Shown piece after piece: positions 29,623 to 31,628 of a stretch of DNA of 64,000 nt (positions within the stretch are counted from its first letter, which is position 1; each line of letters begins with the position of its first letter). The stretch is from Escherichia coli. Its GTDB lineage: Bacteria > Pseudomonadota > Gammaproteobacteria > Enterobacterales > Enterobacteriaceae. The position numbers were made by a program, and so were the translations under genes. The notes beneath the pieces were generated by a model, which saw nothing but the letters and a program-made list of their open reading frames with translations, searched no databases and had not been told where the DNA came from. The DNA is taken from NCBI RefSeq assembly GCF_044647545.1, contig NZ_CP172818.1. One strand, 5' to 3'.

Positions 29623-30414
29623 ATGAGCAGTAACTTCAGACATCAACTATTGAGTCTGTCGTTACTGGTTGGTATAGCGGCCCCCTGGGCCGCTTTTGCT
29701 CAGGCACCAATCAGTAGTGTCGGCTCAGGCTCGGTCGAAGACCGCGTCACTCAACTTGAGCGTATTTCTAATGCTCACAGCCAGCTTTTAACCCAACTCC
29801 AGCAACAACTCTCTGATAATCAATCCGATATTGATTCCCTGCGTGGTCAGATTCAGGAAAATCAGTATCAACTGAATCAGGTCGTGGAGCGGCAAAAGCA
29901 GATCCTGTTGCAGATCGACAGCCTCAGCAGCGGTGGTGCAGCGGCGCAATCAACCAGCGGTGATCAAAGCGGTGCGGCGGCATCAACGACGCCGACAGCT
30001 GATGCTGGTACTGCGAATGCTGGCGCGCCGGTGAAAAGCGGTGATGCAAACACGGATTACAATGCAGCTATTGCGCTGGTGCAGGATAAATCCCGCCAGG
30101 ATGACGCAATGGTGGCATTTCAGAATTTCATCAAAAATTACCCTGATTCAACTTACCTGCCAAACGCCAATTATTGGCTGGGTCAGTTAAACTACAACAA
30201 GGGTAAAAAAGATGATGCGGCGTATTATTTTGCTTCGGTAGTGAAAAACTATCCGAAGTCACCGAAGGCTGCAGATGCGATGTTTAAAGTCGGCGTCATC
30301 ATGCAGGACAAAGGTGACACCGCAAAAGCGAAAGCCGTATACCAGCAGGTTATCAGTAAATACCCTGGTACTGATGGCGCTAAACAGGCGCAAAAACGTC
30401 TGAACGCGATGTAA
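29623..30414 (+). CDS. cpoB: Cell division coordinator CpoB (YbgF), TPR protein
   Basis: ORF track; 263 aa; signal peptide, coiled coil, TPR-like C-terminus. Confidence 0.93.
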   Translation: MSSNFRHQLLSLSLLVGIAAPWAAFAQAPISSVGSGSVEDRVTQLERISNAHSQLLTQLQQQLSDNQSDIDSLRGQIQENQYQLNQVVERQKQILLQIDSLSSGGAAAQSTSGDQSGAAASTTPTADAGTANAGAPVKSGDANTDYNAAIALVQDKSRQDDAMVAFQNFIKNYPDSTYLPNANYWLGQLNYNKGKKDDAAYYFASVVKNYPKSPKAADAMFKVGVIMQDKGDTAKAKAVYQQVISKYPGTDGAKQAQKRLNAM

Positions 30415-30422
30415 TGCATAAC

Positions 30423-30456
30423 ACACGACCAGAAGTCGCATTATTTCTGGTCGTGT
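30423..30456 (+). terminator. Rho-independent terminator after cpoB
   Basis: Hairpin CACGACCAGAA...TTCTGGTCGTG immediately after the cpoB stop. Confidence 0.6.
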
Positions 30457-30578
30457 CGTGCGAATCATAAGCAGTTGAGTGATCTACATCGAAATTTTTG
30501 TTGCGCTCAAGTCTGAAATCAGTAATATATGCCGCCGTTGCCACGGGATATCAAACAAACCGAAAGCAACGAAAAAGT

Positions 30579-30654
30579 GGGTCGTTAGCTCAGTTGGTAG
30601 AGCAGTTGACTTTTAATCAATTGGTCGCAGGTTCGAATCCTGCACGACCCACCA
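30579..30654 (+). tRNA. lysT: tRNA-Lys (UUU)
   Basis: 76-nt GGGTCGTTAGCTCAGTTGGTAGAGCAGTTGACTTTTAATCAATTGGTCGCAGGTTCGAATCCTGCACGACCCACCA; anticodon loop CTTTTAA. Confidence 0.97.
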
Positions 30655-30730
30655 ATCGCTAAGGTGGAAGCGGTAGTAAAACGTGAAGGATAACGTTGCG
30701 TCAGCAACGGCCCGAAGGGCGAGACGAAGT

Positions 30731-30754
30731 CGAGTCATCCTGCACGACCCACCA
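30731..30754 (+). other. 3' fragment of tRNA-Lys (acceptor/T-arm remnant) in the lysT-valT spacer
   Basis: ATCCTGCACGACCCACCA is identical to the last 18 nt of the tRNA-Lys genes, with no 5' half. Confidence 0.6.
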
Positions 30755-30789
30755 CTAACATAGTTAGTTGTAGTATCCAGCGTAGTATC

Positions 30790-30865
30790 GGGTGATTAGC
30801 TCAGCTGGGAGAGCACCTCCCTTACAAGGAGGGGGTCGGCGGTTCGATCCCGTCATCACCCACCA
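30790..30865 (+). tRNA. valT: tRNA-Val (UAC)
   Basis: 76-nt GGGTGATTAGCTCAGCTGGGAGAGCACCTCCCTTACAAGGAGGGGGTCGGCGGTTCGATCCCGTCATCACCCACCA. Confidence 0.97.
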
Positions 30866-30867
30866 CC

Positions 30868-30943
30868 GGGTCGTTAGCTCAGTTGGTAGAGCAGTTGACT
30901 TTTAATCAATTGGTCGCAGGTTCGAATCCTGCACGACCCACCA
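30868..30943 (+). tRNA. lysW: tRNA-Lys (UUU)
   Basis: Identical to lysT, 76 nt. Confidence 0.97.
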
Positions 30944-30994
30944 CTAATTACGGTGGGTTCGGTGGAAGTAGTTTGTAGTATCCAGCGCAGTATC

Positions 30995-31070
30995 GGGTGA
31001 TTAGCTCAGCTGGGAGAGCACCTCCCTTACAAGGAGGGGGTCGGCGGTTCGATCCCGTCATCACCCACCA
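30995..31070 (+). tRNA. valZ: tRNA-Val (UAC)
   Basis: Identical to valT, 76 nt. Confidence 0.97.
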
Positions 31071-31073
31071 CTC

Positions 31074-31148
31074 GGGTCGTTAGCTCAGTTGGTAGAGCAG
31101 TTGACTTTTAATCAATTGGTCGCAGGTTCGAACCTGCACGACCCACCA
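31074..31148 (+). tRNA. lysY: tRNA-Lys (UUU) variant copy, 75 nt, with a 1-nt shorter T-loop
   Basis: Same as lysT except T-arm reads GGTTCGAACCTGC instead of GGTTCGAATCCTGC. Confidence 0.85.
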
Positions 31149-31196
31149 ATTTTAAAGATTGGTTCCGAGTAGAAATCTTTCAGGTAACACCCGTAT

Positions 31197-31272
31197 GGGT
31201 CGTTAGCTCAGTTGGTAGAGCAGTTGACTTTTAATCAATTGGTCGCAGGTTCGAATCCTGCACGACCCACCA
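31197..31272 (+). tRNA. lysZ: tRNA-Lys (UUU)
   Basis: Identical to lysT, 76 nt. Confidence 0.97.
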
Positions 31273-31305
31273 TCCTGAATGATTAAAGCAGCATAATCCC
31301 GCAAG

Positions 31306-31381
31306 GGGTCGTTAGCTCAGTTGGTAGAGCAGTTGACTTTTAATCAATTGGTCGCAGGTTCGAATCCTGCACGACCCACCA
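31306..31381 (+). tRNA. lysQ: tRNA-Lys (UUU)
   Basis: Identical to lysT, 76 nt. Confidence 0.97.
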
Positions 31382-31384
31382 ATG

Positions 31385-31412
31385 TAAAAAAGCGCCCTAA
31401 AGGCGCTTTTTT
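31385..31412 (+). terminator. Rho-independent terminator of the tRNA operon
   Basis: AAAAAAGCGCCCTAAAGGCGCTTTTTTG hairpin plus T-run directly after lysQ. Confidence 0.85.
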
Positions 31413-31538
31413 GCTATTCAGGCATCCTCAATTTCACTGTGTAACCTGATGACATCTTCAGAGCTTACTGTGCAAGCAACTCTACGTCGGTGGAATTAGG
31501 CGTAATTCGAGTGACTTTTCCCCACCATTCGACTATCT

Positions 31539-31556
31539 TGTTTAGCATATAAAACA
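31539..31556. promoter_or_regulatory. Putative NadR operator (NAD box) upstream of nadA
   Basis: TGTTTAGCATATAAAACA resembles TGTTTA-N6-TAAACA; about 75 bp upstream of nadA. Confidence 0.5.
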
Positions 31557-31628
31557 AATTTCACCGATAACAGCGAATATTACGCTCATGTCGGTTTTAA
31601 CGTTAAGCCTGTAAAACGAGATGGTAAG

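Follow-up and report, generated by a model that had tools for sequence, protein, structure and literature searches.

Introduction

The closest described relatives of the element reported here are the repeats of the tyrT-tyrV locus, which are 178 bp long and end, each of them, in the last 19 nt of tRNA-Tyr. Spacers of tRNA operons are also known as sources of small RNAs. The 3'ETS-leuZ of glyW-cysT-leuZ and the internal spacers of metZ-metW-metV are by-products of precursor processing, which are bound by Hfq and act as sponges via single-stranded seeds; we know of no copy of a tRNA 3' end in any of these RNAs. Integration targeted to tRNA genes has its own classic mark, a direct repeat of 16-25 bp that consists of the 3' end of the gene.

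At tyrT, an RNA product is known. In two later papers, rtT RNA is presented as a by-product of tyrT operon processing (PMC2965389; bioRxiv 10.1101/2024.07.17.603846; both citing Bosl and Kersten, 1991), and a role in the stringent response has been suggested for it (PMC2965389; bioRxiv 10.1101/2024.07.17.603846). Transcription of the lysT operon from the lysT promoter gives a single precursor with seven tRNAs. RNase P, aided by RNase E, separates these step by step, beginning at the 3' side (PMC4176162). Northern analysis with spacer probes revealed precursor species only, a small stable band not being reported, and an RtT-type element is not mentioned in that paper, though the spacer was probed (Agrawal et al., 2014; PMC4176162).

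We have analyzed a stretch of 64,000 nt of Escherichia coli DNA (contig NZ_CP172818.1 of assembly GCF_044647545.1), hereafter the window. An earlier note, made from the sequence alone, had pointed to a 3' fragment of tRNA-Lys in the spacer between lysT and valT and had called it an orphan remnant of a rearrangement of the tandem tRNA array. It is instead the module that regularly ends an element of the RtT type, which is conserved and structured and occurs in multiple copies. The main value of the present work is this correction: a lone tRNA tail in an enterobacterial tRNA spacer should be taken for the terminus of an RtT-type unit and not for debris.

Results

The fragment and its spacer

The ARAGORN gene map places the fragment, as had been said, in the lysT-valT spacer, which is 135 nt long (lysT ends at 30654, valT starts at 30790). 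A program pattern match finds there the exact 18-mer ATCCTGCACGACCCACCA, CCA end included, at 30737-30754 (+), 82 nt 3' of lysT and 35 nt 5' of valT. The fragment had been given as 30731-30754: its end was right, and its start included six extra bases (CGAGTC), the true start being 30737. The window has four intact tRNA-Lys genes of 76 nt, and the 18-mer is identical, at 18/18 positions, to the 3' end of each (30579-30654, 30868-30943, 31197-31272 and 31306-31381), the copy in lysT being located at 30637-30654, and it differs by one base from the tail of the fifth, 75-nt tRNA-Lys gene (31074-31148). It reproduces tRNA-Lys nt 59-76, i.e., the last two nucleotides of the T-loop, the 3' strand of the T-stem, the 3' strand of the acceptor stem, the discriminator and CCA. 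When compared with the 3' end of lysW and its flank, the repeat reaches 22 nt (ATCCTGCACGACCCACCACTAA). The match is far beyond chance, as had been asserted: 100 dinucleotide shuffles of the window contain no match to the 18-mer, even when up to two mismatches are allowed.

The absence of a corresponding 5' half was also confirmed, as neither ARAGORN nor the Rfam tRNA model finds a tRNA or a tRNA 5' half in 30655-30789. A tRNA gene or pseudogene was considered for the spacer and rejected, since no cloverleaf (5' acceptor strand, D arm and anticodon arm) was found. The features of the region are as follows.

30579-30654, + strand: lysT, tRNA-Lys(UUU) (ARAGORN; Rfam tRNA model, 79.2 bits; pattern match)
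30586-30754, + strand: extent of the match to RF00391, the 5' half of which is not real homology (Rfam scan)
30655-30754, + strand: 100-bp unit that is present or absent as a whole, made of 82 nt and the 18-nt repeat (comparison with empty alleles)
30655-30681, + strand: variable 5' linker of the 100-bp unit (fold; orthologue comparison)
30682-30691, + strand: 5' strand of the predicted closing stem, CGTGAAGGAT (MFE and centroid structures; RNAalifold consensus; covariation)
30692-30720, + strand: conserved core with hairpins 1 and 2, RtT model positions ~62-95, near-invariant in 25 Lys- and Arg-host copies, the conservation of 30698-30719 being biased by the exact core pattern with which copies were gathered
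30721-30736, + strand: variable hairpin 3 (GAC-GAA-GTC) and GAGTC junction (compensatory variants in other copies)
30737-30754, + strand: 18-mer, copy of the tRNA-Lys tail (pattern match; repeat comparison; fold; end of the RtT match)
30755-30789, + strand: true lysT-valT spacer, 35 nt, common to filled and empty alleles
30790-30865, + strand: valT, tRNA-Val(UAC) (ARAGORN)
The seven tRNA genes of the operon (ARAGORN): Lys 30579-30654, Val 30790-30865, Lys 30868-30943, Val 30995-31070, Lys 31074-31148, Lys 31197-31272, Lys 31306-31381

Two further observations concern the operon. The third tRNA-Lys gene, lysY (31074-31148), is 75 nt long, with a T-loop that is one T short (GGTTCGAACCTGC and not GGTTCGAATCCTGC). 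None of 5,426 complete E. coli genomes contains an identical copy of this variant, the best match reaching 99.5%; it is either a private mutation, which probably cripples this tRNA copy, or a sequencing error. Upstream, between cpoB and the lysT promoter, there may be a terminator-like hairpin, in the form of a perfect 12-bp inverted repeat at 30423-30456 (ACACGACCAGAA / TTCTGGTCGTGT), directly 3' of the cpoB stop codon.

A match to the RtT family

An Rfam scan of 30300-31600 returned the seven tRNAs and one further match, to RtT (RF00391, the family of the tyrT-operon rtT RNA), at 30586-30754 (+). The match covers model positions 1-130 with an E-value of 4.8e-11 and a score of 60.6 bits, above the curated gathering threshold of 45 bits, this score depending in part on the alignment of the ~45-nt 5' module of the model onto lysT itself. 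Its end coincides with the last base of the 18-mer (30754). Model positions ~62-130 align base for base with 30692-30754, where the aligned model text reads GA-AACGU.GCGUCAGC.ACGGCCCGAAGG.C.AG...CGAGU.AUCCU.C.C..CCACCA. In the cmscan alignment, the 5' half of the model is spread across lysT itself, where an insertion of 44 nt is needed, and therefore represents no real homology. The RtT 5' module (model positions ~22-60, GAGAAcCUUCGacc-AGGUUCGAgucgAGC...) is missing from the window unit, and direct alignment makes this short form start at GGAT-AACGTT. Judged from these alignments, the true homology to RtT is that of a compact, short-form unit at 30682-30754.

The unit has the other hallmarks of RtT: (i) it begins directly after lysT, inside the seven-tRNA lysT operon, (ii) its tail copies the 3' end of the host tRNA with CCA, over 18 nt here (18-19 nt in RtT), and (iii) a 5' strand in ...GGAU faces the AUCC... 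with which the tail starts. In K-12 MG1655, the RtT model matches four copies at the tyrT locus, including rttR, at 133-138 bits, and also four spacers of the lysT operon, after lysT, lysW, lysY and lysZ, at 54-60 bits, the orthologue of the lysT-valT unit scoring 58.8 bits. Loci of this type already carry the annotation 'RtT RNA' in Salmonella and Klebsiella records. The family and the annotation of the fragment's element are therefore already known, under the name RtT. Full-text literature searches returned no description of Lys-linked RtT units, and the short-form architecture and the matching of both stem strands to the host appear little described in the literature searched.

Predicted structure and covariation

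The 73 nt of 30682-30754 have a predicted folding energy of -28.5 kcal/mol, against a mean of -18.9 for shuffled sequences (z = -3.8), and none of 200 shuffles folds as well. The predicted architecture is a closing stem around three small hairpins, with ACCCACCA left single-stranded. In both the MFE and the centroid structure, the partner of CGUGAAGGAU is the 10-nt beginning of the 18-mer (AUCCUGCACG), with pairing at 9 of 10 positions, the exception being an A.G mismatch; the 18-mer is in this way divided into a 3' strand of the closing stem (30737-30746) and a free tail (30747-30754). Hairpin 1 is ACGTTGC-GTCA-GCAACG (stem 30694-30699 with 30704-30709) and hairpin 2 is GCCC-GAA-GGGC (30710-30720). 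The lysT cloverleaf and the unit are predicted to fold independently when they are folded together. The linker contains a GGTGG (30663-30667) able to pair with the CCACC of either tRNA-type 3' end; it is kept in most orthologues, despite the variability of the linker, which is of a type typical of the lysT-valT site in other genera. In the predicted fold of the 100-nt version (30655-30754), this GGUGG is additionally paired with CCACC. As modeled, the unit looks like a truncated acceptor/T-stem minihelix in which the conserved core takes the place of the T-loop.

The same closing stem and three hairpins are found by RNAalifold on 25 short forms. In an alignment of 95 distinct copies, which was fitted to the covariance model, standard pairs fill 92.5% of the pair cells, compared with 32-50% after a shift of the partners by one to three columns, and 69 cells are changed on both sides, against 18.7 in shuffles. 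Among these copies, compensatory changes occur at 6 of the 9 pairs of the closing stem. The hairpin 3 stem is swapped as a whole with pairing kept (GAC/GUC, GGC/GCC, GCCAC/GUGGC, CUUCUC/GAGAAG, AGCGC/GCGCU), and the hairpin 1 loop varies (GTCA, ATGA, GCCA, GTTA, GACA, TTTA) on a stem that is maintained. Because much of the core, i.e., hairpins 1 and 2, is near-invariant, it is the closing stem and hairpin 3 that provide the covariation support. The covariation of the closing stem could have been inherited from the tRNA-derived sequence rather than selected.

Relatives in other tRNA operons

The core pattern GCGTCAGCNNCGGCCCGNAGGG was searched in one genome per species, for 100,044 species. About half of the loci returned belong to Enterobacterales (Escherichia, Salmonella, Citrobacter, Klebsiella, Raoultella, Phytobacter, Atlantibacter, Trabulsiella, Pseudocitrobacter, Superficieibacter, Pluralibacter, Pantoea, Erwinia and Serratia), the others being chance matches in GC-rich genomes and an unrelated-looking repeat in some other Gammaproteobacteria. 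All the Enterobacterales copies with a tRNA gene in reach lie 3' of tRNA-Lys(UUU), tRNA-Arg(ACG), tRNA-Pro(CGG) or tRNA-Pro(UGG), and the tail of each surveyed copy is that of its own host, over the last 18 nt; related copies also follow tRNA-Tyr genes.

A covariance model built from 25 short-form copies found 101 copies in 47 loci. Among the 93 model matches with an upstream tRNA, the tail is identical to that of the tRNA over 18/18 nt in 62 and differs at one or two positions in 13, so that a limit of two mismatches holds in 75 of 93 copies, the remainder being mostly truncated matches, copies that have decayed, or gaps in the assembly. With tails that are not cognate, 5-9 of the 18 positions differ, the exception being the two tRNA-Pro tails, which are two positions apart. 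Even a variant tRNA-Lys tail (ACGCCCC), in Citrobacter sp. MGH106, is mirrored in the element of that strain.

When copies at Tyr, proK, proM, arg and Lys are aligned, they have in common a 3' module, AACGTTGC..GCAACGGCCCGNAGGG..hairpin..GAGTMAT, followed by the tail of the host tRNA. They exist in two forms. The long form, found at Tyr, at Pro, at Arg in Serratia and, in some genera, after lysQ, has an additional module on its 5' side. This module contains a hairpin, and the hairpin's 3' strand reproduces the 5' strand of the host T-stem plus TTCGA; in the Lys long form, it reads GATTCGAACCTGC-T-GCAGGTTCGAG. The short form, found at Lys and Arg and including the window unit, runs from GGAT directly into AACGTT. 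In every form, the host-specific tail begins with the complement of the strand that ends in GGAT: the two strands of the closing stem are GGGGAAGGAU / AUCCUUCCCC with Tyr as host, CGUGAAGGAU / AUCCUGCACG with Lys, GGGAGGAU / AUCCUCCC with Arg and AGAGGAU / AUCCUCU with Pro. The closing stem and the three hairpins are predicted alike for the Tyr-, Pro-, Arg- and Lys-linked copies. The survey shows a family with short and long forms, at least four host tRNA species and ends that match the host on both strands of the closing stem.

Several loci with particular arrangements were observed. In several genera, long-form Lys-linked units follow lysQ in the order terminator, unit, tRNA-Lys tail, terminator, sometimes in tandem (L047:9507-9590(-), L063:2315-2398, L072:2812-2895(-), L051:281-517(-), L062:10065-10460 and L077:7542-7625(-)); this layout is the same as that of the 178-bp tyrT repeats, and the window and K-12 have no lysQ units. 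In E. coli GPEC1054 (L003:1188-1267), a short-form unit with the tRNA-Arg(ACG) tail ATCCTCCCGGATGCACCA is located upstream of yqaB, where it adjoins an IS4-like insertion (ISVsa5 family), and no upstream tRNA gene was detected within the 2.4-kb locus. Finally, a multi-copy repeat of non-enteric bacteria (...TTCCGGGAGAAATTTTTAACGTCGCGTCAGCGACGGCCCGAAGGG-YGGCCGCCAGGGAYGGC...), often at contig ends, shares with the RtT core ~28 nt that comprise both hairpins. Its carriers are a Rhodanobacter denitrificans MAG (L027-L032), Alloalcanivorax (L042), Alcanivorax (L059), Amnimonas (L073) and Pseudomonas sp. WN033 (L010); no tRNA genes adjoin the repeat, and an Rfam scan of the Rhodanobacter and Alloalcanivorax copies returned no family. 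This likeness might hint at a deeper origin of the core, or reflect convergence.

Age, loss and copy number

Comparison of the spacer across Enterobacteriaceae, which the earlier note had proposed as a check, finds an orthologous copy in at least seven genera, contrary to the relic reading. The lysT-valT copy, recognizable by its GGTGG linker, occupies the orthologous site in two Klebsiella species, Escherichia sp. E1V33, Salmonella enterica subsp. diarizonae, Citrobacter, Phytobacter, Pseudocitrobacter and Superficieibacter. Among these orthologues, the core is near-invariant and the linker and downstream spacer have diverged. Each of the four positions of the lysT operon has its own linker type, common across genera. 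These position-specific linkers, together with the orthologous copies, imply that the units predate the split of these genera; to judge from these sequences, Escherichia, Salmonella, Citrobacter and Klebsiella would descend from an ancestor whose lysT-valT site was already occupied by the unit.

Within E. coli, the unit comes and goes. The full 135-nt spacer is found in 3597 of 5426 complete genomes, a number that counts full-length spacers and not exact empty alleles, as BLAST coverage poorly separates empty from filled sites because both share everything from ATCC onward. About a third of the genomes are without the full-length spacer, and the unit is therefore dispensable. Empty, 35-nt spacers were read at two loci (L002 and L004). 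In E. coli AVS0935 (L004), the whole operon contains no unit, and, as far as lysY, where there is a separate indel of 1 nt, its sequence is that of the window minus 30655-30754, with one mismatch. In strain 138, the lysT-valT site is empty and a unit is present after the third Lys gene, flanked by a direct repeat that runs 7 nt into the flank and reaches 25 nt. In the empty alleles that were read, exactly 100 bp (30655-30754) are gone between the two 18-nt repeats. Since this site was filled ancestrally, deletion between these repeats is the best reading of the empty alleles, and we infer that there have been several precise losses of the unit, in which the repeats recombined or slipped. What had been suspected as an ancient duplication or deletion holds in part: the 3' end of tRNA-Lys is indeed duplicated, and a deletion does exist, in the opposite sense, as the loss of the whole 100-bp unit in some strains.

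The lysT operon of E. coli contains 0-4 copies depending on the strain, four in K-12 and one in the window strain. The spacers measure 135, 149, 146 and 132 nt in K-12 MG1655 (L090, 780554-781652) and 135, 51, 48 and 33 nt in the window (30579-31381); other strains have no units or other combinations, and strain 138 also has one Lys gene fewer. Recombinant combinations of linker types and downstream spacers are found in Klebsiella michiganensis (L078) and Superficieibacter (L033), in the latter of which the linker is partly repeated after the tail. These combinations indicate, at the level of sequence comparison, unequal recombination with tRNA genes and tails as homology. The family is ancient, yet it is lost repeatedly and precisely.

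Discussion

We consider it likely that the 18-mer is the 3' end of a short-form RtT unit, i.e., of a co-transcribed spacer RNA provided with a tRNA-like 3' end for its processing. The precursor would be cut by RNase P and RNase E and valT separated. The 3' exonucleases would then trim the spacer back to the structured unit and halt at the tail, which is identical to the mature 3' end of tRNA-Lys and would be anchored by the closing stem, as they do at a tRNA end. What is left over would be a compact, stable RNA of ~73-100 nt, by analogy with rtT RNA at tyrT. It is by this analogy only that we propose the release and stability of the Lys-linked RNA, and a function in trans is speculative. The earlier note had itself mentioned a small RNA or a processing role for the spacer, which was a reasonable guess. 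The natural filled and empty alleles offer ready-made, isogenic-like material for asking what rtT-type RNAs do.

A more far-reaching possibility, which we regard as a long shot, is that RtT units form a distinct class of tRNA-templated elements, fitted to the host tRNA on both sides and yielding host-specific acceptor/T-stem mimics along with tRNA transcription. These might act in trans as decoys of uncharged tRNA (toward RelA and the ribosome, tRNA 3' processing and repair enzymes, or tRNA-targeting toxins), or the units might spread by an undescribed copying mechanism that re-templates their ends.

An alternative to a processed spacer RNA is that the units are selfish, tRNA-templated repeats, which spread within and between tRNA operons, by conversion on tail homology or by an unknown mode of copying, to no benefit of the host. 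The family is multi-copy and limited to tRNA operons, it has been amplified in tandem together with the downstream terminator at the tyrT, proK, arg and lysQ loci, and its elements and spacers occur in recombinant combinations, with a copy number in the lysT operon that varies down to zero. However, the conservation across genera of one linker type per position points to vertical descent and not to recent movement, no demonstrably new insertion was found in the loci compared, and movement from one tRNA to another would require both ends to be re-templated, for which no mechanism is known. Selfish spread is a possible route by which the family entered several tRNA operons and formed tandem arrays; as an explanation of the window unit, we find it unlikely.

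The reading as a neutral relic, in which a partial duplication or a deletion in the tandem array left a functionless stub of tRNA-Lys and a junk spacer, is in our opinion decidedly unlikely. It accounts for a tail that is a perfect copy of the neighboring gene, in an array that recombines and varies among strains in tRNA number and spacer combinations, and for a unit with which about a third of complete E. coli genomes can dispense. It does not account for the 82 nt that precede the stub, as these carry a core that is near-invariant across genera and next to four types of host tRNA, fold better than shuffled sequences, show compensatory changes and reach the threshold of a curated RNA family. 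Nor would a neutral 100-bp segment between 18-nt repeats be expected to persist at the same site from Escherichia to Klebsiella.

The 18-nt repeat could alternatively be a duplication of the attL/attR type made by a P4-like integrase, the 82 nt then being the residue of an internally deleted island. The T-loop, where the repeat begins, is known as a crossover sublocation, presence and absence are precise, and in strain 138 the repeat extends into the flank, to 25 nt in all. Against this, only 82 nt separate the repeats and they encode no integrase, the ORFs that overlap the spacer region being at most 54 aa long, while the same core adjoins four tRNA species, each time with the matching 5' strand, and the copy is orthologous across genera. 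Searches of mobile DNA agree with this: (i) BLAST of the core against 50,697 phage records gave no genuine homologue, as the four matches are to contigs or fragments of bacteria, and one carries the annotation 'RtT RNA', (ii) BLAST against 72,556 plasmids gave 22 matching records, all non-mobilizable, of which the best ones are chromosome-sized or very large, and (iii) the core pattern has five matches in the 2.9 million viral contigs of IMG/VR, all in one unrelated coding gene. With neither an integrase-encoding element nor a phage, plasmid or viral-contig homologue, the scar of an island or prophage was rejected as a candidate, and we hold it to be very improbable.

A tiny basic peptide, kin of the 'protamine-like protein' Tpr of tyrT, is the least credible product of the unit and was discarded: there are ORFs at 30683-30763 (26 aa) and 30696-30758 (20 aa), the latter (+, MRQQRPEGRDEVESSCTTHH) having RQRPEGR in common with K-12 Tpr (L091:1588-1677(-)), but this motif is the conserved core read in the same frame, which suggests that the K-12 tpr ORF is itself the RtT core read in frame, and the start codons are GTG or TTG, the ORF passes through the tRNA tail, and indels in hairpin 3 of orthologues break the frame.

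The processed spacer RNA that we favor can finally be set beside the known systems. With the att repeats of P4-type integrases, the window unit shares a T-loop-to-CCA repeat of 18 nt (up to 25 nt) and a precise polymorphism of filled and empty sites; it differs by the lack of island, integrase and phage or plasmid homology, and by the conserved, structured core in the 82 nt between the repeats. With the acceptor/T-arm minihelices of tRNA and with tRNA-like 3' structures, it shares a helix made of the T-stem 3' strand and part of the acceptor 3' strand, and a tail ending in NCCA. However, it has only three acceptor base pairs, a free tail of 8 nt instead of 4, and a three-hairpin junction in place of the T-loop, and it is missed by tRNA models (ARAGORN and Rfam tRNA). 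Like the tRNA-spacer small RNAs, it would be a processing by-product that could persist as an RNA of its own.

The closest likeness is to the RtT of tyrT (rttR, RF00391). The tyrT RtT is known from an RNA product and the window unit from its sequence. The latter is short, without the ~45-nt 5' module (GAGAACCUUCGACCAAGGUUCGAcUCGAGCG..AGCGAGAG), and single, without a tandem array with terminator; it lies between two tRNA genes instead of after the last one, and its host is tRNA-Lys. Both nevertheless lie directly 3' of a tRNA gene in a tRNA operon and end in the last 18-19 nt of the host tRNA with CCA, and both are built on the module AACGTYGC-loop-GCRACGGCCCGAAGGGCGAG-hairpin-GAGTMAT, within a closing stem of the form xxxGAAGGAU/AUCCxxx.
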